This document shows, in pieces, positions 1-12,042 of a stretch of DNA of 64,000 bases. The position numbers and the translations under genes are program-made. This DNA is from a virus. Below the pieces are notes generated by a model. The model was not told where the DNA came from. It ran no database searches and saw only the letters and a program-made list of their open reading frames with translations. Each line of letters opens with the position of its first letter. Position 1 is the first letter of the stretch. Where the stretch lies: positions 1-64,000 of the IMG/VR virus record IMGVR_UViG_3300025816_000006; one strand, 5' to 3'.

Positions 1-98
1 CGCCAGACTTTCCAAGTACCTCAATTCTACCACGAAAGATGCCGGTTACAACACCTTTCTTCAATTTTGTGCCAAGTTTTACAACTGGCGTTTGTGGA

Positions 99-332
99 TC
101 AACCATCCTCATTTTCCTTTGCTTCTAGGGCGCGTTGTTGTTCTGCCGCTTCGTCGGCACGATCTTTACGAATACGATCCGCTTTACTGTTTAGTGTCTC
201 TGCTAGTGAGAGATACTGATCGTCTGTCATTGTAACACAGACTTCGTTCTGATCGGAATCGTTGAACGTCAGTGCTTTCCAACCAGTGTAAGCGTGGTCG
301 AATTTTAACTCTACGGTAGTTTTGACTTTCAT
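99..332 (-). CDS. small hypothetical early protein (start moved to MKVKTT)
   Basis: ATG at 332 preceded by GGAGAG SD and promoter 370-397. Confidence 0.75.
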   Translation of the reverse strand: MKVKTTVELKFDHAYTGWKALTFNDSDQNEVCVTMTDDQYLSLAETLNSKADRIRKDRADEAAEQQRALEAKENEDG

Positions 333-369
333 AAGTCTCTCCAAAAGGGGTTGTGAATTGAACTCTTCT

Positions 370-397
370 ATTATACTATACTTATCGGGCTTGTCAA
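370..397 (-). promoter_or_regulatory. sigma70-type promoter TTGACA-N16-TATAAT with internal CCGATAA box (representative of the early class)
   Basis: Minus strand TTGACAagcccgataagtatagTATAAT. Same class at 650-677, 1043-1070, 2434-2461, 2609-2637, 3309-3337, 3550-3577, 3783-3810, 4960-4988, 5174-5201, 6405-6433, 7854-7881, 8598-8625, 8853-8880, 9076-9103. Confidence 0.9.
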
Positions 398-406
398 GAA
401 AAAACT

Positions 407-610
407 TTAGAATCCATGTTGATATTTCTCAGGTAATTTGCAGTACCAAGACAGCATATCTTTCCAAGTCTTTGCCGCTTCTATTAGCCAAGTTCCATCG
501 TCATCGAATGGATGTTCTGCAAGCTCTTGAAGTTTGCTCGCATATCCCTTTAGCATATCTTCATGAACGCCTGCTTCTAGCTGCTCTTCTGTAAATTCAA
601 ATCCAATCAT
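407..610 (-). CDS. small hypothetical protein (start MIGFEF)
   Basis: AGGAG SD upstream of ATG 610; own promoter 650-677. Confidence 0.7.
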   Translation of the reverse strand: MIGFEFTEEQLEAGVHEDMLKGYASKLQELAEHPFDDDGTWLIEAAKTWKDMLSWYCKLPEKYQHGF

Positions 611-683
611 CTCAAATCTCCTAAAAAGTTTAGTGTAGTTTACTCTTCTATTATACTCTATCGTCATTCTTTGTCAAGTATCT

Positions 684-857
684 TTAGTTAATTTGCAAAA
701 TAATTTCGTCAAGAACTGCAAGGTCTGAATCTTTGTCGATGTAGATACTACCCGTTATTGCGTCTGAATCAGCAGGGAATCCCGCACCGTTCTTGACAGT
801 GTAGCGTACCTTGGTCTTAGTTTCTTTGTCTTTGGTAAAAACAATACTGTTAGTCAT
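684..857 (-). CDS. small hypothetical protein (start MTNSIV)
   Basis: TAATG stop/start overlap with upstream ORF 857-1018. Confidence 0.7.
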   Translation of the reverse strand: MTNSIVFTKDKETKTKVRYTVKNGAGFPADSDAITGSIYIDKDSDLAVLDEIILQIN

Positions 858-1018
858 TACTGTTTCCATTCTACTGTAAACTCCACTTTCTGTTTAGGTT
901 GTGCCGCCCATACGTCAGGCGATCCGGTTGTGATTCTGTAATTCCTTACGGGTTGACGACAGCCAATCAACATGCAACCCGCGAGAAATGCCAGTGCTAA
1001 AATCAGTGCTTCTCTCAT
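857..1018 (-). CDS. 53-aa putative lipoprotein (not in ORF track)
   Basis: MREALILALAFLAGCMLIGCRQPVRN...: hydrophobic signal plus LAGC/LIGC lipobox; AAGGA SD; promoter 1043-1070. Confidence 0.65.
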   Translation of the reverse strand: MREALILALAFLAGCMLIGCRQPVRNYRITTGSPDVWAAQPKQKVEFTVEWKQ

Positions 1019-1142
1019 TTGTCTCGTCCTTGTTATGTCTTGATTATACTATAGTTATCGTCATTGTCAAGACTTTACTTTAGTTTATTTTTTATTATTT
1101 TCGCTGGCTGGCTGGCTGTAATAACATAATCTGTTTAGATTA

Positions 1143-1214
1143 GAAAAGACAGGACGGGAAGCCATACCGTCCGAACCCTTTGGTCACAATGAGGCTTTAA
1201 CTGGGCTGTCTTAT
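1143..1214 (-). ncRNA. putative ~70-nt small RNA
   Basis: Promoter TTGACA(1243-1248)-N16-GATAAT with no ORF downstream; AAGACAG/CTGTCTT closing stem, GGACGG/CCGTCC hairpin, U-tract end. Confidence 0.4.
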
Positions 1215-1279
1215 AATATTATTATCGTCTAAAATGTGTGTTTGTCAATAGTCTATTTATAAGTTTTTTAAGAATAGCT

Positions 1280-1359
1280 GTAAGTCCTTGCCGCCAAAGG
1301 AGTTACGACGCCGGGGGCTGCCCCCGCCCGTCCTAAGTCGTTACCAGCAAACGAGTTAC
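1280..1359. repeat. paired-palindrome element, copy 1
   Basis: GTAAGTCCTT-N7-AAGGAGTTAC, 26-bp GC-rich linker, CTAAGTCGTT-N7-AACGAGTTAC. Confidence 0.95.
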
Positions 1360-1418
1360 GACAGTTAGGAACAAGGCGATAAAAAAGTTTAGAAAATAGA
1401 AAGTTTTAGGGTTGACAA

Positions 1419-1664
1419 TCATTCTTCTTCTCTGTGTATTCTTTCCAATAGTTCTTCTTTAGTTGCTTCCGCTTCGCTTTGCGTCCCACATATAAACATG
1501 GCAGGAACCCACGATCCACCCATCCGACCAAGACACCACGCGCCAGCGTCAAGTTGATCATCTGGACTATTTTTGAACGTCTTAGCGTCAAAAGGAGTTC
1601 TTATCATAACGCTGGATTCTGTTGACATTCTAAACAGTACCGCCCAAACGCTTATCTTTTCCAT
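1419..1664 (-). CDS. small hypothetical protein
   Basis: ORF track; ATG start directly after stop of 1666-1878. Confidence 0.7.
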   Translation of the reverse strand: MEKISVWAVLFRMSTESSVMIRTPFDAKTFKNSPDDQLDAGAWCLGRMGGSWVPAMFICGTQSEAEATKEELLERIHREEE

Positions 1665-1665
1665 T

Positions 1666-1878
1666 TTAGTATCCTAACCAGTTTACAAGTTGTTGTGAGT
1701 CCACTTCGCCATTCTCGTCCAGCATTGCTATGATCTCGTAACCTTCTTCGTCAAAGCTACAGCCTAGGTCGTTATCCACACCCTCAGCAACGTCATCCCA
1801 TCCGTGTGCTTCCAGAATCGTTTTTGCAATCTTTACCGATACGGTTGGGAACTGCTCTGCCCATTCTTGACTATCCAT
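1666..1878 (-). CDS. small acidic hypothetical protein
   Basis: AAGGA SD, CAA-rich leader. Confidence 0.75.
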   Translation of the reverse strand: MDSQEWAEQFPTVSVKIAKTILEAHGWDDVAEGVDNDLGCSFDEEGYEIIAMLDENGEVDSQQLVNWLGY

Positions 1879-1916
1879 TGTATTTCCTTAGTTGTTGTTT
1901 TTGTTGTTGGCGATTG

Positions 1917-2096
1917 TTACGCTTTTCGTTTTTGTGCTTGAACGTTGTCGCTCTTAGCTTTGGTGCGTAGATTCTCTTGCCAGTCGAGGTAATCTTCTGC
2001 ATCTTTATAACTCCAAAAATTTCTAGTTAGTCCAGTGGTCTTGTTTTCTACTTGCCACTGTGTACGCTTGTTGATTGTTACTTTAAAATTTGTCAT
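1917..2096 (-). CDS. small hypothetical protein
   Basis: ATG at 2096 overlapping the end of 2083-2397. Confidence 0.65.
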   Translation of the reverse strand: MTNFKVTINKRTQWQVENKTTGLTRNFWSYKDAEDYLDWQENLRTKAKSDNVQAQKRKA

Positions 2097-2397
2097 CAAA
2101 TTCAATTATCCCTTCTTTTACCATAGCACCAACAAAAGTTTGCTGGTTTGTATGTAGTGCGATTTCGTCGGTGTGTCCATTGTAATCGAACTCGCCGGTA
2201 GCGTCAACCTGTTTCCGGTAGTTCTCTATGTTTTCTTGCTTGATTCTTTTGAGTCTACGATACTCGCTTTCCTGCTCTTGCTTGAACAGGTCATCTTCTT
2301 GAGTGTAGAAAATGGTTTCACCATTACCAACATTCAGACCGTAAATCTCGTCGCGGGTCATTTCAGCATCAAGGCAGATTTCGTTGAAGTTCATCAT
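2083..2397 (-). CDS. hypothetical protein
   Basis: TAAGGA SD; promoter 2434-2461. Confidence 0.8.
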   Translation of the reverse strand: MMNFNEICLDAEMTRDEIYGLNVGNGETIFYTQEDDLFKQEQESEYRRLKRIKQENIENYRKQVDATGEFDYNGHTDEIALHTNQQTFVGAMVKEGIIEFDDKF

Positions 2398-2457
2398 GTT
2401 TTCCTTAGTAGTTGTTGTTTGTTGTATGTCTCTATTATACAGATAGAGTTGTGTTTG

Positions 2458-2601
2458 TCAAGGGGCAATTCGTAAATCGTCAAAGTTTTTTTGGATAAAC
2501 TTACAGATTGCATTCCAGCGTGGTGTGGATACGTCAGAGGGAACTTGCCCACCATATGCCCAGATATTTATCATTCTCATCATGTGTTTGCTTTTTCTCA
2601 T
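2458..2601 (-). CDS. 47-aa hypothetical protein, probably leaderless
   Basis: ATG lies ~7 nt after the -10 box at 2609-2614; MRKSKHMMRMINIWAYGG... Confidence 0.5.
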   Translation of the reverse strand: MRKSKHMMRMINIWAYGGQVPSDVSTPRWNAICKFIQKNFDDLRIAP

Positions 2602-2677
2602 GTTTTCCATTATACTATAGTTATCGGCTTTTGTCAACCCCTATCTATAGTTTATTTCTAATTTTTTATGAATTGTT

Positions 2678-2757
2678 CTAAGTCGTTGTCAGTAAAGGAC
2701 TTACGGTTGCCGGGGGCCGCCCCCGCCGTCCTAAACCCTTGCGGCGTAAGGACTTAG
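2678..2757. repeat. paired-palindrome element, copy 2
   Basis: CTAAGTCGTT-N7-AAGGACTTAC, 26-bp GC linker, CTAAACCCTT-N7-AAGGACTTAG. Confidence 0.95.
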
Positions 2758-2761
2758 GGAA

Positions 2762-2840
2762 AACAAAGAAGCGGGGTGGGACATCTGACTTACCTGCGGC
2801 GATCATTTCGCAGTACAGACCCGTTCGTCCCCGCATCTTC
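2762..2840 (-). terminator. extended GC hairpin with U-rich tail (terminator or 3' structured RNA)
   Basis: GCGGGG/CCCCGC, TCTG/CAGA and CTGCG/CGCAG stems followed by TTCTTTGTTT, downstream of ORF 2858-3052. Confidence 0.5.
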
Positions 2841-2857
2841 GCAACAACACAACAACA

Positions 2858-3052
2858 TTAGAACATAAGGTCAAGATTGTACTTATTACGCGCTAGACGC
2901 ACAATATACGGCACTTGCCCTTGGTGGGCGGTTCGGATCTTGCGACCCTTGCGGTCATACTCGCGGATCTCAGCGCGTTGGTGGCGCTGTGAGTTGGAGG
3001 TGTTGAGAATAACGCGAGCAGTGACAGCAGGTTTTGATTGTAAAGTTTTCAT
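2858..3052 (-). CDS. small basic hypothetical protein
   Basis: ORF track; AC-rich leader like neighbouring genes. Confidence 0.7.
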   Translation of the reverse strand: MKTLQSKPAVTARVILNTSNSQRHQRAEIREYDRKGRKIRTAHQGQVPYIVRLARNKYNLDLMF

Positions 3053-3342
3053 AATGTGAATTTCTCTATCTGTGGTTGTTGAAAAAAAGAGTCTCGGTTT
3101 TTTATCGTGGTTCTCTCCACGCTGCCGCTGTCAGGCCCATTGTGGGCGGCATCGCCTTTAGTTTCCGACTTTCATTCTCAGTTACTCTGCTGGTGTTGCG
3201 GTTTCTAGTAATACACCCATCGGGGCTTTCTAACATGCTACGGGTCTTGGCACTCATTACTGAACTTTTCGTTCTGCCCGTTTTAGTTGTCCATTGGATT
3301 ATATCTCCATTTTAACGTAGGTTGATGCCCTTGTCAAGTCAA

Positions 3343-3522
3343 TTACCACGGTTGTGGCTGATTATCTTGGAACTCGTTGTTGATTTCCATCCAAACATTT
3401 TCCCAGTGGATGCCTTGGGTGTCCTCGTCAGCTTTACGCTGCTCGCAGTATGCCAACAGTGCAGCGTACTCGTCTTGGTCGTACATATCTTCGATCTGAA
3501 GTTGAGTGTTAAAACTGTTCAT
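3343..3522 (-). CDS. 59-aa acidic hypothetical protein (not in track)
   Basis: AAGGA SD; promoter 3550-3577; MNSFNTQLQIEDMYDQDEY... Confidence 0.7.
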   Translation of the reverse strand: MNSFNTQLQIEDMYDQDEYAALLAYCEQRKADEDTQGIHWENVWMEINNEFQDNQPQPW

Positions 3523-3594
3523 CGTTTTTTCCTTTCGTGTTATGTTCTTATTATACAGTAGTTATCGGCGTTGTCAAGCCGAATCTTGACCTTT

Positions 3595-3744
3595 TTAGAA
3601 AAACTTTCGCAAGTTTCTCAAAGCCTTGACAGCATCGCGGATTGCTTCGCGGAACTCCTCGTTGTGGCTTGGGTTGTCGTATGCCACGATCTCGTCGCTG
3701 AGTTTGCCGATGAGAGTGAAGATGAATGATGGTTTAGTTTTCAT
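3595..3744 (-). CDS. 49-aa hypothetical protein (not in track)
   Basis: TAAGGA SD; promoter 3783-3810. Confidence 0.65.
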   Translation of the reverse strand: MKTKPSFIFTLIGKLSDEIVAYDNPSHNEEFREAIRDAVKALRNLRKFF

Positions 3745-3813
3745 AATTTTAATCCTTAAAGTGTTGTGTGTTGTATGCCTCTATTATACATAGTATCGGC
3801 AATTTGTCAAGTC

Positions 3814-3894
3814 CTACTTCTTACTTTCTTCTAAAATAATCATAAATACTTGAACCATTACCAAACTCGCCGCTGTGCAAATTGCAATTTCCAT
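3814..3894 (-). CDS. 26-aa hydrophobic micropeptide
   Basis: TAAGGAG SD; MEIAICTAASLVMVQVFMIILEESKK. Confidence 0.5.
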   Translation of the reverse strand: MEIAICTAASLVMVQVFMIILEESKK

Positions 3895-3984
3895 ATCGTT
3901 TATCTCCTTACTTATATTATCGGGCATGGCGTTGACAAGTCTGGTCACTCTTATCAGGAAAGTTTAGAAAAGACAGGAATAGTC

Positions 3985-4064
3985 ATAAGTCGTTGCTACG
4001 TAAGGACTTACGGCGCCGGGGGGCGGCCCCGCCGGTCCTAAACCCTTACAGGCAAAGGACTTAC
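3985..4064. repeat. paired-palindrome element, copy 3
   Basis: ATAAGTCGTT-N7-AAGGACTTAC, 26-bp GC linker, CTAAACCCTT-N7-AAGGACTTAC. Confidence 0.95.
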
Positions 4065-4065
4065 G

Positions 4066-4293
4066 TCAATCCCAGATCTCGGACAGCATTTCGCCGTCCT
4101 TCTCTACGCGCCGCATCTGGAGTACAGGCACACCGCCATACCCTTCGGGATGACCACCCGAAACGGTATGCGCTCCGCGCTTGCGGAGGTTCGCCCACGC
4201 CTGCTTGGGAGACTTCCCAAACGCAACGCTGCGCGTGGTGTAATAACCGAACCTGCCGAAGCACTCAACGTCTGAAACGATAACTTTGAACAT
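4066..4293 (-). CDS. small hypothetical protein
   Basis: TAGGA SD; lies at the 3' end of the ncRNA cluster. Confidence 0.7.
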   Translation of the reverse strand: MFKVIVSDVECFGRFGYYTTRSVAFGKSPKQAWANLRKRGAHTVSGGHPEGYGGVPVLQMRRVEKDGEMLSEIWD

Positions 4294-4337
4294 AATAAAA
4301 ATCCTAAAAAGTGTTGTGAAATTTGTATTGTAGGGTT

Positions 4338-4465
4338 AGGGGTGTGTGGGTGACGATCCCACGTTACCGGCGATTTGTTACGCTGTTAGGTCAATCCCCG
4401 CTAAAGGATTAGAGTCTACACTCTGTAACAAAAAGTAGCGTCCGGCTTCTTCCACAGAACACCCC
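4338..4465 (-). ncRNA. tRNA-like structured RNA (acceptor stem + T-arm + large internal domain)
   Basis: GGGGTGT/ACACCCC 7-bp stem directly preceded by GTGGG-ATCGTCA-CCCAC; internal GCCGG/CCGGT, TGTTAC/GTAACA, AGAGT/ACTCT and AATCCTT/GGGGATT helices. Confidence 0.6.
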
Positions 4466-4606
4466 GTATTGTATTGTTTGCGATTTTGTGGATTTGTCTG
4501 ATCTTACAGACCGGGACATCTTGCCCGACTCGCGTTGTGTGGTGAGGACTTACTATCCAACCTGCCGTTGAGCATAAGCCGACCTGTTAGTTTGCCTCTT
4601 GTGTTG

Positions 4607-4709
4607 CGACTGGTGAGGGAGTCGAACCCTCGCAGGTGGCTGATCGAGCCTATGCCGCCAATGTTTCCAGAGGGAGTCGAACCCTCGCATCCTGTCCCAA
4701 CTACCAGTC
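4607..4709 (-). ncRNA. tRNA-like RNA with duplicated T-arm
   Basis: GACTGGT/ACCAGTC 7-bp stem directly preceded by GAGGG-TTCGACT-CCCTC; identical hairpin repeated internally; stemless AGTTGGGA D-loop-like segment. Confidence 0.65.
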
Positions 4710-4867
4710 ATTGTATTGTTTGCGGGAATCGAACCCGCTCGGCTGTCAGGCGTAGCTTGCTGCTACGGTTTTCCTCACTTATTACCGTTCCGGTGTGTGG
4801 TGCGTATCTTGAATAGCTCGCCAGCTATGGCCGCGACTTGGGCGGTGCTTTCGGGTCAAGCCCTTGA

Positions 4868-4890
4868 AACTACCAAATTGTAAAAGATCA
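4868..4890 (-). promoter_or_regulatory. boxA-like antitermination signal, copy 1
   Basis: TGATCTTTTACAATTTGGTAGTT; first 16 nt match E. coli rrn boxA region TGCTCTTTAACAATTT at 14/16; ~60 nt after promoter 4960-4988, preceded by hairpins. Confidence 0.7.
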
Positions 4891-5088
4891 AAAAGTCAAG
4901 CTGACCGGCTGAGATTGGCCGTCATTAAGTCGCCTCGCAGACTCACTTAACATGCCCCCATTATACCATAAGTATCGGCATTTGTCAAGGGGTATCATGA
5001 CTAAAATTGTAAAAATTGGGGAAATTTTCTGAGGTCGTCTTTTCCTTTCTTGGCGACACGACTTGCCGCCTCCCCGTGGAGAATGTTG

Positions 5089-5111
5089 AACTACCAAATT
5101 GTAAAAGATCA
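5089..5111 (-). promoter_or_regulatory. boxA-like antitermination signal, copy 2
   Basis: Exact 23-bp repeat of 4868-4890; ~55 nt after promoter 5174-5201, preceded by GAGAG/CTCTC hairpin. Confidence 0.7.
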
Positions 5112-5249
5112 GTGAGAAGACTGATGAGAGCGTCCCAGTTCGTCGGGTGCTTTCCTCTCTGCTTCACTCCCCCATTATAATATATATCGGCTATTTGTCA
5201 AGCCCTAGGCCACTTTAATTCGCAATTATTTAGAAGTTTTATAGTTGAC

Positions 5250-5328
5250 GTAAGTTGTTGCTACGTAAGGACTTACGTCGCGGCGGGCTGCCCCGCCGGT
5301 CCTAAACCCTTACTGCTAAAGGACTTAC
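5250..5328. repeat. paired-palindrome element, copy 4
   Basis: GTAAGTTGTT-N7-AAGGACTTAC, 25-bp GC linker, CTAAACCCTT-N7-AAGGACTTAC. Confidence 0.95.
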
Positions 5329-5352
5329 AACTATTCTTAATAAAATAAGAAA

Positions 5353-5859
5353 TTATACCAAATAGGTCTTGACACCAACTTGACCGGCAAGGTCAACATT
5401 GTGTTGGTCATCATCGTAAAAGTAGACAACATCAAAAAGCTGATTCAAAGTCTGTAGAACCTTTTGCTTTTCTGCTGGAATATCAACTTTTTTATCATCG
5501 GAACCAACACCGAAAACGCGAACAGGTTTAACATCAAAACCGCAAAGCCAATCAACGATTGCATCGGCCACATTATCAGCGCGAGCAGTGAGAACATAAA
5601 CGCTATGTCCTTCGTCGTGAACTTCTTTAGCTAGAGCCATAAGAAAAGTAGGATTAGCGGAACGAATGAACTCAGCAGAACGGAACTCGGAAAAGTCATA
5701 TTCTTCACCGTCTGCTAGAACGTCAGTATTGAACTCAGCAGGAGTCAACTTGCGAATAGGTAAACCGCGAGTACCGCGACCGTTTGGACGACGAACGAGA
5801 ACCTTGCAGTCAGTAGTTGCCAAAGTGTCGTCAAAATCAAATACAAATGCTTTTTTCAT
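5353..5859 (-). CDS. HAD-superfamily phosphatase (PNKP/RNA-repair-like)
   Basis: Motif I FDFDDTL, motif II VLTAR, K, motif IV FYDDD. Confidence 0.85.
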   Translation of the reverse strand: MKKAFVFDFDDTLATTDCKVLVRRPNGRGTRGLPIRKLTPAEFNTDVLADGEEYDFSEFRSAEFIRSANPTFLMALAKEVHDEGHSVYVLTARADNVADAIVDWLCGFDVKPVRVFGVGSDDKKVDIPAEKQKVLQTLNQLFDVVYFYDDDQHNVDLAGQVGVKTYLV

Positions 5860-5914
5860 AATCTTAAATTCCTTAATTGTTGTTTTGTTGTATGCCCTAT
5901 TATAACATAGGGGT

Positions 5915-5931
5915 GTGACACGTTAGGTCAC
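5915..5931. promoter_or_regulatory. second upstream motif GTGAC-N7-GTCA(C)
   Basis: Exact GTGACACGTTAGGTCA at 5915, 6137, 7431, 7628; variant TTGACAAGTCTGGTCAC at 3932; always upstream of minus-strand genes lacking a TTGACA -35. Confidence 0.8.
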
Positions 5932-5940
5932 GAATCAGGA

Positions 5941-6081
5941 CTAATCCTGAGAAACGTGGAATCCACGTTTAACCAAGGACTCGCCGTGAGCGTGGGAAAC
6001 CAACATCAAACCGCCTGCCGAAATGGAAACGATAGTTGCGGTGATGATGCCGAAAGTGTTGTGATTGAATTTGATAGTCAT
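5941..6081 (-). CDS. 46-aa hypothetical protein (not in track)
   Basis: MTIKFNHNTFGIITATIVSISAGG...; downstream of motif 6137. Confidence 0.55.
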   Translation of the reverse strand: MTIKFNHNTFGIITATIVSISAGGLMLVSHAHGESLVKRGFHVSQD

Positions 6082-6155
6082 AATTTTTCTCTTAGTTAGT
6101 GTTGTCTCTTGTATATTACTATTATCGTCTATAGGCGTGACACGTTAGGTCAATT

Positions 6156-6365
6156 CTAACCAGCAATCTCAAAAGATTTTATATCTTTTTGTTGGGTGTG
6201 AATCCATCTTTGAATTTTGTGGTCGTAAAACATAACCCGATCACCATTGATGGAGACATTGTTGGCGGTGGTAGTGTGAACCCAACCACACTTGACACCG
6301 TTTCCGGTTACGGTGATGTTGGCGGTGGAATCAGTGTTGGTGATGAAGTTTTGAAAGTTAGTCAT
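6156..6365 (-). CDS. small hypothetical protein
   Basis: TAAGGT SD; promoter 6405-6433. Confidence 0.75.
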   Translation of the reverse strand: MTNFQNFITNTDSTANITVTGNGVKCGWVHTTTANNVSINGDRVMFYDHKIQRWIHTQQKDIKSFEIAG

Positions 6366-6542
6366 AGTTGTTTACCTTAAAGAGTTGTTGTTTGTTATGT
6401 CCTAAGTATATCATATATATCGTCATTTGTCAACCCCTCTCTACACCTAAAATGGAATTATATAGGAAATAATTTTACCCCCCTACTGGTGGTGTTGTAC
6501 CCCCCGTTGGCGTTACGGGTCAAGATAAGCAAAGACATTACC

Positions 6543-6621
6543 CTAAGTCGTTGCTACATAAGGAGTTACGTCAATCGGGGCTGCCCTGTCCATCCTAAGT
6601 CGTTACTACCAAAGGACTTAT
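6543..6621. repeat. paired-palindrome element, copy 5
   Basis: CTAAGTCGTT-N7-AAGGAGTTAC, 25-bp linker, CTAAGTCGTT-N7-AAGGACTTAT. Confidence 0.95.
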
Positions 6622-6666
6622 AACTATTCTGAGAAAATTGCAAAAATGTCTATTGACACGTCATAA

Positions 6667-6786
6667 TTAACTCCAGTGTAAAAGCATATAAACTATTGAC
6701 ATTATACCAAACATAATGGTAATAACGCAGATCCCCATCATAAATAAATCGAACAGGGCAGAACAAAGTTTTCCAAAGTTTTCCAT
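6667..6786 (-). CDS. 39-aa membrane micropeptide (not in track)
   Basis: GGAG SD; MENFGKLCSALFDLFMMGICVITIMFGIMSIVYMLLHWS. Confidence 0.55.
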   Translation of the reverse strand: MENFGKLCSALFDLFMMGICVITIMFGIMSIVYMLLHWS

Positions 6787-6789
6787 TTC

Positions 6790-6882
6790 TTACTCCACGG
6801 ACGCACAAGCATCACAAGTTGGCTGGACAACATCGTTGCGACGATTGGAGCAGTCGCAACCACAAATTACACAAATTTTCAT
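6790..6882 (-). CDS. 30-aa Cys-rich (Zn-ribbon-like) peptide (not in track)
   Basis: MKICVICGCDC...TCDACASVE, two CxxC pairs; TAGGA SD. Confidence 0.55.
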   Translation of the reverse strand: MKICVICGCDCSNRRNDVVQPTCDACASVE

Positions 6883-6915
6883 AATAGTTGTTTCCTAGTT
6901 GGAAGTTGTTAAGTT

Positions 6916-7005
6916 GTTGGGTCGCAGTTTTGATTACCTAGTATAACTTGCGGTTAAATTCCTAGAACCTGATTTATTTATATTCGGCAGGATATCCGAG
7001 TAGAA
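6916..7005. ncRNA. conserved pseudoknot + hairpin element, copy A
   Basis: Homologous to 8298-8390 with compensatory base changes in two helices. Confidence 0.65.
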
Positions 7006-7009
7006 CGCA

Positions 7010-7174
7010 CTACTTGGTGCGTTTGAATGGGCTATGCCCGTATTTTGCTACATAAGCAGCAAAGGCAGCAGCTTCACGCTGCTTACGATCAGCACGTTGT
7101 GCTGTCGTTTCAGGAGCAACCGGCTTGCGGTTTGCAACTGAATCCCAATAGTAGTTATTAGTTTTATAAGTCAT
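7010..7174 (-). CDS. small hypothetical protein (start MTYKTN)
   Basis: AAGGA SD before ATG 7174. Confidence 0.65.
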   Translation of the reverse strand: MTYKTNNYYWDSVANRKPVAPETTAQRADRKQREAAAFAAYVAKYGHSPFKRTK

Positions 7175-7220
7175 AAGTTTTGATCCTTTCAAGATCGGGT
7201 AAAAAATAGTAATTGTGCGA

Positions 7221-7373
7221 TCACTCGCAACCGAAGCGACCATTTACGGTCACTTGGTCGGCGGTGGGTTGGTGTGAACCTTCGCGGCGAACCTCAACGC
7301 GACCCTCTCGCATTGCAGCTTGGAACTGCTCAAGAGTCATGTTTTCAGTTTCTTTGGCGGTTAAAGTTTTCAT
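7221..7373 (-). CDS. 50-aa hypothetical protein (not in track)
   Basis: TAGGA SD; downstream of motif 7431. Confidence 0.6.
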   Translation of the reverse strand: MKTLTAKETENMTLEQFQAAMREGRVEVRREGSHQPTADQVTVNGRFGCE

Positions 7374-7646
7374 AGTTAGTTTTCCTAAAGGAGTTTTGAA
7401 TTTGTTATATAAGTAGTATCGTCTATGGTCGTGACACGTTAGGTCACTACTTTCGGGAATCTTCCAAGATTTTTAAAACTTCATCGGTTTGCTTGTTGGA
7501 CAATTTAAGGTTCAGAACCGCAAGGGTTTCGACAAATGCCGAGTTGATTTTGCGGGCTACAATTTTGTGGGCGATTGTTTTGCTGTTCATTGTTGTTTCT
7601 TTCATATTAGTATTATCGTCTAAGGGTGTGACACGTTAGGTCAATG

Positions 7647-7847
7647 TTAGATATAATTCCAGTGGAATTTGGAAACTTTATATTCTGCAAAATCGCGGTT
7701 GACGATATTCCAAACGATATTATTAACGCTGTTGTATGCTCCATCGCTGTTGATAACATACGTTTTATTGTAACGCTTACCATTAGCTAATGTCACGAAG
7801 ATTGATACGTTTTCTTTAATCATTGTTTTACTGTTGTTGTTTGTCAT
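7647..7847 (-). CDS. small hypothetical protein
   Basis: Promoter 7854-7881; start uncertain (7847 leaderless, or 7823). Confidence 0.6.
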   Translation of the reverse strand: MTNNNSKTMIKENVSIFVTLANGKRYNKTYVINSDGAYNSVNNIVWNIVNRDFAEYKVSKFHWNYI

Positions 7848-7991
7848 GCTTCTATTATACATACATCGGCAGATTTGTCAACCCCTCTGTACCCTAATTC
7901 CGAAAGTTTTTAAGAAATAATCTTACCCCCCCTGTCGGCGGTTGCATACCCCCCATTGGCGCTACGGGTCAGGATACGCTAAGACATTGAC

Positions 7992-8070
7992 GTAACCTGT
8001 TGCTACATAAGGACTTACGTCGCCCGCCGCTGCCCCGTCCGTCCTAAGTCGTTACTACCAAAGGACTTAC
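7992..8070. repeat. paired-palindrome element, copy 6
   Basis: GTAACCTGTT-N7-AAGGACTTAC, 25-bp linker, CTAAGTCGTT-N7-AAGGACTTAC. Confidence 0.95.
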
Positions 8071-8116
8071 GTCGATTTAAGAATAATCCAGTTTTTTGCC
8101 GGATTTGCTATTGACA

Positions 8117-8266
8117 TCATAGAGTTTTTTCTACAATCTCAAACCATTCTCTGTCGAGTTCAGGTTCATTTTGCACGTATACCTCTGCCTCTTTTCGGGT
8201 AGCGAAAGCGTCACAATACTTTTCGCAGGAATAGCCGTCGTCATAGGTTACAATGTAGATAGTCAT
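8117..8266 (-). CDS. 49-aa hypothetical protein (not in track)
   Basis: MTIYIVTYDDGYSCEKYCDAFATRKEAEVYV... Confidence 0.6.
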   Translation of the reverse strand: MTIYIVTYDDGYSCEKYCDAFATRKEAEVYVQNEPELDREWFEIVEKTL

Positions 8267-8297
8267 AATGTTTTTTCTAGTGTGTAGTGTGTAGTGT

Positions 8298-8390
8298 GTT
8301 GGGTTCGCAGTTTAGATTATCGGGTACAACTTGCGGTTAAACTATCCGAACCTAATTTATTTAAAGTGGGTAGGACATCCCACTTGACAG
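8298..8390. ncRNA. conserved pseudoknot + hairpin element, copy B
   Basis: Homologous to 6916-7005 with covariation. Confidence 0.65.
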
Positions 8391-8558
8391 CTACGCCAAT
8401 CGCTCAACGTATTCTTTAACCATTCCCTTTTGGTAGTAAACGTCTACCACGTATCCACGGGAAACGGAATCGGCAGCCATTCTGTAGGCTTGGGCTTTGT
8501 CCCAAACTTTGTCAGTGGAAACGGCTTTGTTATTAAGAAGTGTTACTAGTTTGTACAT
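8391..8558 (-). CDS. 55-aa hypothetical protein (not in track)
   Basis: TAAGGT SD; promoter 8598-8625. Confidence 0.65.
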   Translation of the reverse strand: MYKLVTLLNNKAVSTDKVWDKAQAYRMAADSVSRGYVVDVYYQKGMVKEYVERLA

Positions 8559-9340
8559 TGTTTTTTACCTTAGTAGTAGTGTTGTTGTTATGTCTCTATT
8601 ATACAGATATCGGCTGATTTGTCAACCCCTATCCAGTCTAATTCCAAAAGAATTAGGAAAGTAATTTTTCGCAATGCTCGCGAATTTCGTGTTCGTGGTA
8701 TCCTGCTCTGTCAAGACCTTCCATCCAAAAGATGGAAACAGCTTTGGAAAGATTCCCGCAAGCGTCAATTTTTGCGAGTAGTTTGCCGAGTGTGATTTGT
8801 GAAATTCTGTTCATTGTTTTTACCTTAGTAGTGTTGTGTCTTGTGTGCTTCTATTATACAGATATCGGCCAGTTTGTCAACCCCTATCCAGTCTAATTCT
8901 TAAATAATAAAGAAACTTTTGTTGATACCCAATTGTACCCTTTATCGTTCATATCCCAAACGAAAGCGTTAACGTGTGCTTTATTGCACATTACGAAGCG
9001 GGTGTCATTGGAAGCGTTTTGAAAAATCATTGTAATCATTGTTTTACCTTAGTAAGTGTTGTTGTTATGTCCCCCATTATACATACTTATCGGCATTTGT
9101 CAATAGGTGTGTGCAGTTATTCTAGAAGTTTTACAAAGAAAGTTTTTATCTGTTTTTTGTTAGTTTTTATCAATTTAGGGTTGACGGGGGTTATATCTTC
9201 GGGTAAAATGTACCTTCTTACCCCCCGAAAGAGGGGGGTGGTTTAGACACAATCCCCAAAAATATATGTAAATGTATCAGCCAATCTATTCGCCTTGAAG
9301 CTTCTCGACGCTTTCGTGTCTACATAAAACACATTTAAAT

Positions 9341-9544
9341 CTATGTTTGCCCGTCATCAGAAACACCTTCGTTCCGCATTTTTTGCACACTGGAGGCCCG
9401 TAGACGTATTTTGGAACAAACTTCTGTTTTTTCTTCTTCATTCATATTTCTCCAGTTAGAAATTTCTTGAGTAGTTCTGAAACACCCCAGACAAACTCCG
9501 TTTGTGTTGAGGCTACAGTGCTTAATACAGGGTGATTTAATCAT
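9341..9544 (-). CDS. DUF1289-like Cys-rich (predicted Fe-S) protein
   Basis: SPCxxxC...CxGCFRTxxEIxxW signature. Confidence 0.8.
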   Translation of the reverse strand: MIKSPCIKHCSLNTNGVCLGCFRTTQEISNWRNMNEEEKTEVCSKIRLRASSVQKMRNEGVSDDGQT

Positions 9545-9957
9545 TTTTGGTTATAAAATTATTTAGGGTATGTACACACCACCGGCTTTTATCCTACCAA
9601 GCAAGTAACTGCGCAGGATATGAGATACTAATCAGTGAGCCACAAACCGGATTCTTGCTTGAGCTTTGGGTGAGAGCCGTAAACTCACAACTAATTTTTA
9701 TTAGCTTCTCATTACTGAGACCGTAATCCGCCAAATGTATCAGGCACTGGTAATACCTGAGTCCAACTCCTAACAATCTTATAAATTTTTTATATCTGGC
9801 TTTCTACAAATTGTAGTTCGCCGTCCAAGCGCCACAAACAGGACAGGTTTTTAATGTGACTGCGTTATACAAAAATCTCAATTCCTAGTATCCCGACATA
9901 TATTGTCACTCATTATAGGTAAATTGATGCCAGTAAGTCAAGATTTTTATAAGAAAC

Positions 9958-9986
9958 TTGACAAAATCGCCTATACAGTGTATAAT
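9958..9986 (+). promoter_or_regulatory. promoter opening the plus-strand region
   Basis: TTGACA-N17-TATAAT, with GTGTATAAT motif at 9978-9986. Confidence 0.8.
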
Positions 9987-10134
9987 AGGTAAGAAAGCCC
10001 CCTAAACAGAGAATCAAAAATGAAAAATGCAAAAAAGATACAGTCTAACTTGTGCTGCAAGGCAACAGCTAGCCTCGGAATGGAAATACAAGATGAATTG
10101 ACAAAAAAGGACAAATCTTTAGGAAATTTACTAG

Positions 10135-10761
10135 ATGAACAAGAAAATAAAAACAAAAACCCTAATATCTGTGGGTGTTCAGAAAACAGAGACCAAGGAT
10201 GTCGAAATAGTATTTGACGCTCTTAGAAAACTTCCAGAGCCAGAAAAATCTGCAATACCAGTAGGTCAAAATTTTTTCTACCAAATAAAACAAACTAAAG
10301 ACGAAAGGCTTAATACATACTGTGAGTCTGGTCTTGGTGAATTTTACAAAAAACGCAATAAATTCTTTTTTAAAAGAGAATATGTATTTTGGGTAGAAAA
10401 AGACGACACATCATACAGACCAAGAAACGGAACGCCACCAGTTCTAAACGACCTTGAAGGTCATAACTTTATTCTTTTGAAATATCTGCCAGAAAATTAC
10501 AAAAATATTCTCGTAAGCAAAAATAGTGTACTTTGTTCCACAGAGCCGTTTACTCCAACGCCAGTAGAACTACAAGATAACACTCTCTTAGGCAAGCTTA
10601 ATAATATTATACAGTCTATAGATCAAAATGAATTATGGTCTATACTCTTACAAAATAATAAAAAGCCCGTTGAAGGAAGCATTAAGTACAACAAGAAAGA
10701 TAAATGCTTTGAAGGATACGACGGAAAACAATGGCGCGCACTAATGTGGGGTGAAGAATGA
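10135..10761 (+). CDS. hypothetical protein
   Basis: 208-aa ORF, ATGA-coupled to next gene. Confidence 0.8.
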   Translation: MNKKIKTKTLISVGVQKTETKDVEIVFDALRKLPEPEKSAIPVGQNFFYQIKQTKDERLNTYCESGLGEFYKKRNKFFFKREYVFWVEKDDTSYRPRNGTPPVLNDLEGHNFILLKYLPENYKNILVSKNSVLCSTEPFTPTPVELQDNTLLGKLNNIIQSIDQNELWSILLQNNKKPVEGSIKYNKKDKCFEGYDGKQWRALMWGEE

Positions 10762-11270
10762 AGATACCCCCTAACATGATAGAAGATGAAGTACTAAGAG
10801 TTATAGAAAAGGTTATCAATAAGACTGCTGCTAAATATACCTTTTATGGATATACAGTAGATGACATAAAACAAGAGTCTTTCATTATATGTATAGATGC
10901 GCTCCAACGATATGATGGTAAACGCCCGTTGGAAAACTTCCTCAGTGTAAATCTATCTAATCGTCTTAAAAATTTCATTCGTGACAATCACTTCATCTCA
11001 AACTCGGATGATGAACGAATAAAAGTCTTACAACCGGCGCAACTGGATTATGAAGAAACTCTTTTGGATGAAAACGAAAAATATGCAGTAGACGAAGAAC
11101 ATTTTGATTATTTATACATTTCCACGAACATTGATAGGCTTCTTCCGGCGTCAATGCGTATGGATTACCTCAAGATGATTGCAGGAGTCTACCTTCCCAA
11201 AGCAAGAAAAGAAGAAATATCTAAAAGAATATTAGAAATAATGGAGGACTGTGGCTATGAAGAAAGGTAG
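10758..11270 (+). CDS. phage sigma-factor-like protein (sigma70 region 2)
   Basis: DDIKQESFIICIDALQRYDGKRPLENFL...NRLKNFIRD resembles sigma70_r2. Confidence 0.7.
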   Translation: MKIPPNMIEDEVLRVIEKVINKTAAKYTFYGYTVDDIKQESFIICIDALQRYDGKRPLENFLSVNLSNRLKNFIRDNHFISNSDDERIKVLQPAQLDYEETLLDENEKYAVDEEHFDYLYISTNIDRLLPASMRMDYLKMIAGVYLPKARKEEISKRILEIMEDCGYEER

Positions 11271-12042
11271 GATCTCTAAAGAAGAAGAGGCGATCATAGA
11301 AAAGAGCATAGGTACTATGTCCTACGAAGATATAGCGGACAAGCTTGACAGAGACCCTGAGAGCGTCGAGAAGTTTATTAAGCGTAAGTTCAATGTTGGT
11401 GCATCTAAAGAAGAGAAAGCGGCTTTTGAGCTTGACCAGAGACCCTACTGGGTTGAAGTAAAACAGCAGTTTACAGAGGACGAACTGAAGCTTTTTAGAT
11501 ATCACTGGGCTAGAATCATTTCACAGTTTCGTGATGACGTTATTCCTACAGAAGAACTACAGGTTGTTGACCTCATCAAGTTAGAGCTACTAATGAACAG
11601 GTCACTCAAGCAGAATAAAGATAACATAGAGCAGATCTCTACGCTAGAGGGTCTAATACAAGCAGAGAGGGCGCGCGACCCAGATCAGCAAGATGTAGAC
11701 ATGGTGTTTAACATGGAGCGTCAGGCGGCTTCTCTGAAGGCTTCACAGGAATCTTTAAACAAAGACTATCGTGAACTCCAAACAAAGAAAAACTCGATGC
11801 TCAAGGAAATGAAGGCAACAAGAGAGCAAAGAGTCAAGAGACTAGAAGACAGCAAACAGAGTCTTGTTGGATGGATAGCATACCTTATGGGTAATCCAGA
11901 TGTAACAAGTCAATACGGAATAGAAATGGAAAAGATGCGACTAGCCATGAAAAAAGAAAAAGAGAGACTGGGAGCATTCCACAAATTTACAGATGGACAG
12001 GTAGACCAACCCTTTTTAAACTCGGACACTATCAAGGACTAA
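11257..12042 (+). CDS. HTH/coiled-coil protein, possible terminase small subunit
   Basis: N-terminal SYEDIADKLDRDPESV HTH-like segment, long coiled coil; upstream of terL. Confidence 0.45.
   Translation: MKKGRISKEEEAIIEKSIGTMSYEDIADKLDRDPESVEKFIKRKFNVGASKEEKAAFELDQRPYWVEVKQQFTEDELKLFRYHWARIISQFRDDVIPTEELQVVDLIKLELLMNRSLKQNKDNIEQISTLEGLIQAERARDPDQQDVDMVFNMERQAASLKASQESLNKDYRELQTKKNSMLKEMKATREQRVKRLEDSKQSLVGWIAYLMGNPDVTSQYGIEMEKMRLAMKKEKERLGAFHKFTDGQVDQPFLNSDTIKD

Follow-up and report, generated by a model that had tools for sequence, protein, structure and literature searches.

The nutL/nutR sites of lambda and the putL/putR sites of HK022 are structured RNAs that act in cis and have covarying stems and conserved loops. 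The translational operator of gene 32 in phages T4 and RB69 combines a 5' H-type pseudoknot with an unstructured leader that covers the ribosome-binding site (PMC535899). T4-like phages also carry promoter-stem-loop cassettes, termed PeSL and PmSL (PMC2839356, PMC4122927). Here we describe a ~90-nt element that occurs in two copies in the IMG/VR record IMGVR_UViG_3300025816_000006, a phage genome of 162,690 bp with a completeness of 98% per CheckV. The window, meaning the whole stretch of DNA that was analysed, is the first 64 kb of this genome. Judged by sequence comparison, the element is a previously undescribed family of structured RNA, absent from Rfam and with more than 60 homologs, which is carried by an abundant group of uncultured marine phages.

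The two copies, A (6915-7009) and B (8298-8392), gave a gap-free alignment of 95 columns. A degenerate core pattern of 36 nt matched only positions 6923-6958 and 8306-8341, with zero matches expected from shuffled sequences, and no further copy was found in the rest of the genome, including by the covariance model (CM) R3. This duplication had been reported by the initial annotation of the window, and it was recovered in full. The annotation had also placed both copies directly behind stop codons. The adjacency is real, but it exists on the minus strand, where the stops lie at 7010-7012 and 8391-8393. The structural elements are read here on this strand, which is the gene-sense strand.

The fold would consist of two adjacent pseudoknotted domains, PK-A and PK-B. 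In PK-A, the loop of a 6-7 bp hairpin (P1) would pair with four bases past a 10-nt A-rich linker (helix S3). In PK-B, a covarying 4-5 bp helix (S2) would cross an invariant 7-bp helix (S1). The elements have the following positions:

6923..7002, minus strand: structured element of copy A (PK-B core and PK-A); CM score 112 bits, 103 bits with R3; alignments A2, A4 and A7
8306..8385, minus strand: structured element of copy B; CM score 103.9 bits, 97.9 bits with R3
6981..7002, minus strand: hairpin P1 of copy A (stems 6981-6987 and 6996-7002, 8-nt loop 6988-6995); three of the seven pairs covary in the family
8364..8385, minus strand: hairpin P1 of copy B (stems 8364-8370 and 8379-8385, loop 8371-8378)
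6968..6971, minus strand: linker strand of S3 in copy A, with loop bases 6988-6991 as partner; P1 and S3 together make the H-type pseudoknot PK-A
8351..8354, minus strand: linker strand of S3 in copy B, with loop bases 8371-8374 as partner
6937..6966, minus strand: crossing helix S2 of copy A (6937-6941 with 6962-6966); its variants pair in register
8320..8349, minus strand: crossing helix S2 of copy B (8320-8324 with 8345-8349)
6923..6952, minus strand: putative S1 of copy A (6923-6929 with 6945-6952, one bulged base); invariant, no covariation
8306..8335, minus strand: putative S1 of copy B (8306-8312 with 8328-8335)

Relatives of the element were found in marine viral and metagenomic contigs. 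Pattern scans of IMG/VR gave five additional copies on four contigs, and a pattern scan of marine metagenomes gave 56 loci. A CM built from six copies returned 68 matches, which made up 44 distinct rows; 66 of them were full-length, with about 40 distinct sequences. At three to five sequence types, the family has little depth. Contigs of sufficient length often held two copies in the same orientation, 1.1-2.4 kb apart, and the helix variant (S2/S3 type) differed between the two every time. Patterns freed of S1 found no S1 variants in IMG/VR and GTDB genomes, and few new true copies (one, L181). This full-length copy lies on a 6.2-kb contig (JARGOI010000157.1) of a GTDB genome, binned with a Thalassolituus metagenome-assembled genome. 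The bin is a weak hint at a marine gammaproteobacterium as host, which would fit the consensus sigma70 promoters described below. The IMG/VR pattern matches L006, L009, L010-L015 and L155 were chance occurrences in coding DNA and were discarded. No diverged copies were detected by the models R2 and R3 in the loci of 80 relatives or in the rest of the genome.

The window had no match in Rfam 15 at gathering scores. With E<=10, the region 6700-8600 gave a sole, irrelevant match of 16 bits at 7044-7063. BLAST against isolate phages and plasmids returned chance matches only (E>=3). The proposal of a novel pseudoknotted RNA with compensatory changes, made in the initial annotation, has thus gained support: Rfam offered no match, more than 60 additional homologs keep the pairings, and three helices covary.

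With respect to the single helices, P1 has three covarying pairs in the larger family, in agreement with the compensatory stem changes first noticed between the two copies. S2, recognized at the outset as CTAG/CTAG in copy A and CGGG/TCCG in copy B, also occurs as TCTAG/CTAGA, TCGG/CCGA and TTCGG/CCGAA, always in the same register. Its three central pairs were formed in 43 of 43 full-length distinct rows, with two to three pair types each. S3 is a new 4-bp helix, found by a mutual-information scan, which joins the hairpin loop and the linker. Given as plus-strand sequence, loop bases 1-4 (TAGG, CAGG, TGAG) covary with the linker (CCTA, CCTG, CTCA). S3 was paired in 44 of 44 rows, with double changes in three of its four pairs. 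The YAGGAYAT described initially as a conserved loop is not a free one, because its first four bases are the ones that pair with the linker. Since the loop pairs outside its own hairpin, and both P1 and S3 are supported, the hairpin is itself an H-type pseudoknot (PK-A). S1 joins two complementary strands, CGCAGTT/AACTTGCG, and is picked by RNAalifold. The loops are invariant across the family. All helices together paired 95% of the cells, a level reached by none of 500 shuffles, and slid partners gave 21-48%.

Several other pairings were tried and rejected. The outer helix GGUUC/GAACC, given by RNAfold for copy B, was not conserved, an alternative helix competing with S1 could be formed by only some variants, and a pairing of the loop with the downstream Shine-Dalgarno (SD) region was inconsistent. 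Columns 51 and 66 of alignment A7 (6960 and 6945 in copy A, 8343 and 8328 in copy B) always agreed in their purine: of 41 distinct sequences, 32 had A at both positions and nine had G at both. The match could reflect a non-Watson-Crick tertiary contact or shared descent.

Bases 1-10,000 of the genome hold ~30 tiny open reading frames (ORFs), every one on the minus strand. About 14 perfect consensus promoters (TTGACA-16/17-TATAAT), all on the minus strand, stand ahead of many of these early genes, and a CA-rich leader with an AAGG-type SD follows each of them. The two copies are embedded among the following features:

7010..7243, minus strand: gene upstream of copy A, 77 aa; stop codon 7010-7012, 7 nt from P1
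8391..8558, minus strand: gene upstream of copy B, 55 aa; stop codon 8391-8393, 5 nt from P1; consensus promoter at 8625-8598
6883..6922, minus strand: leader of copy A, 40 nt, CA-rich and unstructured, up to the ATG (6880-6882) of a 30-aa Cys-rich gene (6790-6882)
8267..8305, minus strand: leader of copy B, 39 nt, CA-rich, up to the ATG (8264-8266) of a 49-aa gene (8117-8266)
8384..8389, minus strand: 6-bp direct repeat, second copy at 8111-8116, flanking a 273-nt unit (copy B, leader and 49-aa gene)

Copy B lies ~210 nt downstream of its consensus promoter, with no terminator called in between. No intrinsic terminator was called at either copy, on either strand, and the tail after P1 is A-rich. 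Because the copies lie downstream of strong minus-strand promoters without an intervening terminator, they are expected to be transcribed in sense. Stop codon and P1 were 5-7 nt apart in 49 of 50 distinct contexts, a set in which each of the three stop codons and about six families of upstream genes were represented. Read on the minus strand, both pseudoknots have an A-rich third loop, a usual trait of the H-type. No conserved plus-strand promoter was found upstream, where the plus-strand flank is the variable leader. This context of promoters, stop spacing and loops favours the minus strand as the acting one.

The initial annotation had taken several G-U pairs as a sign of plus-strand function, and in the larger alignment the strands tie. 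Pairing on the plus strand only was seen for the internal U-G in P1 of copy A and a terminal U-G in 20 distinct rows. As many positions pair on the minus strand only, namely the last pair of S2 (29 rows) and the hairpin of L108, and the U-G position of copy A is T:T in L110. Pairs restricted to a single strand thus exist both ways, and the G-U pairs do not decide the strand. If a plus-strand antisense RNA were the functional molecule, the plus-only pairs would be explained and the equal paired fraction would be no obstacle, but its promoter would be missing and the constant spacing to a minus-strand stop would have no reason. We consider this very unlikely.

Between S1 and the ATG there are 30-46 nt. 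This stretch is filled by the CA-rich, unstructured leader, which never contained a promoter, and the conservation stops where the leader starts. The genes downstream are tiny ORFs without Pfam or PHROG function, and they fall into at least 14 families unrelated to one another. This diversity makes a riboswitch variant, one of the functions put forward initially, unlikely, and speaks for a module of general use in expression, not for a switch tied to one gene. In empty sites (L120, L126 and others), the 55-aa gene runs directly into the end-of-operon module. By the same comparison, the 273-nt unit in the window is inserted between the 6-bp direct repeats. The 30-aa gene behind copy A is, in other genomes, coupled directly to another gene upstream, without element or promoter, and read-through expression would thus be the local norm. 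The filled and empty sites and the promoterless coupling together show that the element travels as the 5' part of promoterless cassettes, which would be expressed from the resident operon. An extension of the upstream protein by stop-codon read-through or frameshifting was rejected, since the frames, which vary from context to context, end after 9-25 codons. Behind the 49-aa gene, at about 8085-8116 on the minus strand, there is a terminator-like hairpin with a weak U-tract. The same module is found directly behind the 55-aa gene in element-less contigs, and it therefore marks the operon end.

Cassette movement is also what a DNA recombination site would predict, either attC-like or a portable homology block, with no function as RNA. 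Such a site would account for the position right behind the stops of unrelated genes, the mosaic cassette content, the filled/empty polymorphism of 273 nt with its 6-bp direct repeat, the two direct copies per genome and a GTTRRRY-like word in the core. Against it, no tyrosine recombinase was found in the genome, in a search whose positive control was detected in 14 of 14 genomes. The covarying helices cross, unlike those of a folded attC hairpin, and homologous exchange would be poorly served by two copies that, within a genome, are never of one S2/S3 type. We regard a recombination site as the least probable of the explanations weighed here; an integron attC in particular was rejected because of the crossing helices and the recombinase not found.

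Two other classes of intergenic module were recognized in the early region. A GC-rich repeat of ~100 nt forms a long imperfect hairpin, down to -40 kcal/mol, with z from -3.4 to -4.5 for two copies. In the window it lies at 7985-8085, 6535-6630, 5235-5335, 3975-4070, 2671-2734 and 1273-1362, and further copies are at about 157.9, 159.1, 160.1 and 161.6 kb of the genome. The repeat recurs every ~1.3 kb at early-operon ends, just upstream of the next consensus promoter; candidate roles are an RNase III-type site, a terminator and a REP-like module. The second class consists of GTGAC-N7-GTCAC followed by a GATAAT-like box, replacing the -35 (7606-7646, 7374-7446, 6082-6155, 5860-5940). Its layout is probably that of a factor-dependent promoter. 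One of these modules has just 6 nt between box and ATG, suggesting that its transcript is leaderless.

The main rival explanation places the function in the DNA. The element would be a PeSL/PmSL-like cassette of stem-loop, AT-rich tract and non-sigma70 (middle-type) promoter, read by the host RNA polymerase together with a phage factor, for example the sigma-like protein at 10758-11270. Position speaks for it: the element takes the place that a consensus promoter or the GTGAC-N7-GTCAC module has in other cassettes, its conservation ends at the leader, and the genes behind it never have another promoter. The order of stem-loop, AT-rich tract, conserved block, SD and ATG is that described for PeSL (PMC4122927), PK-A is joined to a promoter-like module in L110 and L128, and a possible reader is encoded by the phage. 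The sequence itself fits a promoter poorly. A consensus scan detected no sigma70-like site inside either copy, no sigma70-like -35/-10 was present, and the best -10-like hexamer has a G at the critical position 2 in most copies. By eye, there was no fit to sigma54, sigma28 or ECF-type promoters. The core words are not enriched elsewhere in the 163-kb genome, and the promoter class would have just two members. Copies that stand before a hairpin module and no gene would make little sense as promoters. A phage RNA polymerase was not found by searches of the genome, in one of which the positive control was silent. Three helices, of which two cross, show compensatory changes, which are unexpected for a promoter or operator and point to a folded RNA. 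On balance we hold the promoter explanation to be unlikely.

The 170-aa ORF at 10758-11270 matched sigma70 region 2 with 24 bits. It is overlapped by a 263-aa ORF (11251-12042), which has a weak region 4 match at its N-terminus. From these domain matches, the two ORFs may encode a phage sigma factor that is split or made of two parts. On the minus strand, region 2 was weakly matched a second time at 134556-134657.

Several functions of the RNA itself were weighed; the initial annotation had put forward a ribozyme, a nuclease-blocking RNA and a type III antitoxin-like mimic as candidates. Small ribozyme classes are frequent in the intergenic regions of phages. A self-cleaving ribozyme, or a dedicated RNase processing site, would cut the early polycistronic RNA between its cistrons, in line with the compact multi-pseudoknot fold, the invariant loop and junction nucleotides and the one or two intergenic copies per phage genome. 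None of the Rfam 15 ribozyme models matched, even at E<=10, the topology of side-by-side H-type pseudoknots is unlike hammerhead, twister, pistol, hatchet and HDV-like ribozymes, and a pistol-like P2 pairing was tried and rejected as not conserved. A cleavage function thus seems rather improbable, slightly more so than a promoter.

Alternatively, the early transcript could release a trans-acting or decoy RNA, which would act as a defence inhibitor or mimic (type III antitoxin-like) or as a cofactor of a phage protein. This would suit an accessory early-region element with invariant loops that occurs in any gene context, including with no gene downstream, and beside other non-coding RNAs such as the tRNA-like sequences at ~4300-5200; the short covarying helices could equally be intermolecular. 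The tandem repetition that is the hallmark of type III antitoxins is absent, the copies being dispersed 1.1-2.4 kb apart. No recognizable toxin or defence gene adjoins the element, the neighbouring ORFs matching no family, and there is no similarity to plasmid or isolate-phage DNA. A decoy would also leave the strict stop spacing and the constant absence of a following promoter unexplained. We rate this explanation as improbable, below a ribozyme and above an antisense RNA. The stretch at 4300-5200 on the minus strand is ~1 kb of non-coding sequence behind two tandem consensus promoters. It has several T-arm-like GGTTCGA motifs and may hold tRNA or tRNA-like genes.

We favour, with a probability of about 0.4, a cis-acting structured RNA in the early polycistronic mRNA, serving as a platform for recognition by a factor. 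The ~90-nt module would be transcribed on the minus strand within polycistronic early mRNAs. Its distance of 5-7 nt from the stop codon would be the closest start at which a terminating ribosome need not unwind it. It would be the adaptor at the 5' side of accessory gene cassettes that lack a promoter, and would present a compact, ribosome-proof platform to a trans-acting factor. This factor could be the elongating RNA polymerase, by analogy with nut/put sites, or, by analogy with the T4 gene 32 operator, an RNA-binding protein. How strongly the cistrons on both sides are expressed, and/or how stable they are, would depend on this recognition. The invariant loops and S1 argue for specific recognition rather than generic structure, and the rules of its placement couple the fold both to the end of translation upstream and to a promoterless cistron downstream. 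Within the cis-acting reading, factor-dependent read-through or antitermination is the first candidate, at somewhat less than an even chance. Stabilization of the mRNA or translational control is a little less favoured, and a smaller share is left for something else.

A bolder proposal is that phages attach a tandem-pseudoknot RNA of a new catalytic or machinery-binding class to promoterless cassettes. The RNA would self-cleave, or reprogram the polymerase or the terminating ribosome, and the gene behind it would thereby be expressed from the resident operon. This is doubtful, if less so than the promoter explanation.

Several observations weigh against the cis-acting platform. On three contigs, with two different upstream genes, a GC-rich long-hairpin module and no gene stands directly behind the element, which does not fit a function directed purely at the downstream gene. 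In L110 and L128, PK-A occurs alone and is joined, after its last paired base, to the GTGAC-N7-GTCAC promoter-like module, and in general the element fills a slot held by promoters in other cassettes. We infer the acting strand and the transcript ends from context; the pairing statistics tie, with 95.4% of the cells paired on the plus and 95.3% on the minus strand. The helices are short and, taken alone, weak (-0.6 to -5.8 kcal/mol). S1 is invariant in every copy, as the initial annotation had said, and this invariance is partly due to ascertainment, the metagenome pattern having required the S1 sequence. The pairing that the annotation had read into it is unproven: no covariation supports it, and a helix of its size appeared in 72% of shuffles under a loose criterion, hence S1 is not significant alone. 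With S2 covarying and S1 not, PK-B is half proven. Finally, the element was present in only one of 80 relatives' loci, which makes it dispensable, an accessory feature of a sub-lineage.

In this family, a complex fold with three covarying helices and at least one true pseudoknot is linked to a precise stop-codon position and to accessory genes that move without a promoter. Should the element control read-through, translation or stability, phages would have in it a portable adaptor for expressing gene cassettes. Regulation in the hyperplastic early regions of large phages would then follow a new principle, and synthetic operons would gain a compact part. Should it be catalytic, it would represent a new ribozyme class.

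Outside the early region, plus-strand genes begin at 10,135 and include those for the sigma-like protein, the large terminase, tail fibres and a tape measure of 2464 aa. The terminase is 27% identical to Bacillus phage terminases, with no close isolate, and a neighbouring protein has more than 215 relatives in IMG/VR. Behind the tape measure gene, a single ORF of 4846 aa with FG-GAP repeats extends from 58,282 to genome position 72822. It is followed by ORFs of 1773 and 1505 aa, and all are unusually large virion-region proteins without family assignment. A DnaE-type DNA polymerase III alpha, located outside the window, is split in two ORFs (genome positions 106960-108519 and 109649-111319), with the PHP and NTPase domains in one and the finger and OB domains in the other. 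Between the two polymerase ORFs there are ORFs of 225 and 158 aa.

Compared with known RNAs, the element has the H-type pseudoknot topology and A-rich loops of SAM-II and preQ1-I and shares short words with them. The resemblance to SAM-II, on which the initial annotation had remarked, was not confirmed, cmscan yielding nothing at E<=10. No Rfam 15 model came near its threshold, those for SAM-II, preQ1, pistol, twister, hatchet, HDV-like and ToxI included. Unlike SAM-II and preQ1-I, which precede a metabolic regulon, the element stands before tiny unrelated ORFs, and the SD is 30-46 nt away and not sequestered.

The element resembles nut and put sites in its one or two copies per genome, its place in early operons and its position in an untranslated gap behind a small first gene. 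For copy B, the order is promoter (8625-8598), 55-aa gene and element, and downstream there are only the terminator-like hairpin (about 8085-8110) and the GC-rich long hairpins. Unlike nut and put, it has no boxA/boxB-like sequence and is pseudoknotted rather than built of one or two plain hairpins, and an N-like factor was not identified here. Nearly every early gene has its own strong promoter, which makes the need for antitermination of this type less obvious.

With PeSL and PmSL the element shares repeated intergenic cassettes in a hyperplastic early region, the insertion, deletion and swapping of small ORFs, and the layout from stem-loop to start codon. It differs in that the conserved block has neither -35/-10 nor Mot box/-10, and in the RNA-type compensation, which includes crossing helices.

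The operator of gene 32 serves one autoregulated gene for a single-stranded DNA-binding protein, unlike the at least 14 unrelated downstream genes found here. The leaders here are without UUAAA/UAAA repeats, two adjacent pseudoknot domains of ~90 nt replace the single one, and sequence similarity is undetectable. The architecture is alike: in both cases a phage mRNA carries an intercistronic pseudoknot, which in gene 32 may abut or overlap the upstream reading frame, followed by unstructured RNA up to the start codon, ~40 nt at gene 32 and a CA-rich leader of 30-46 nt in the family described here.

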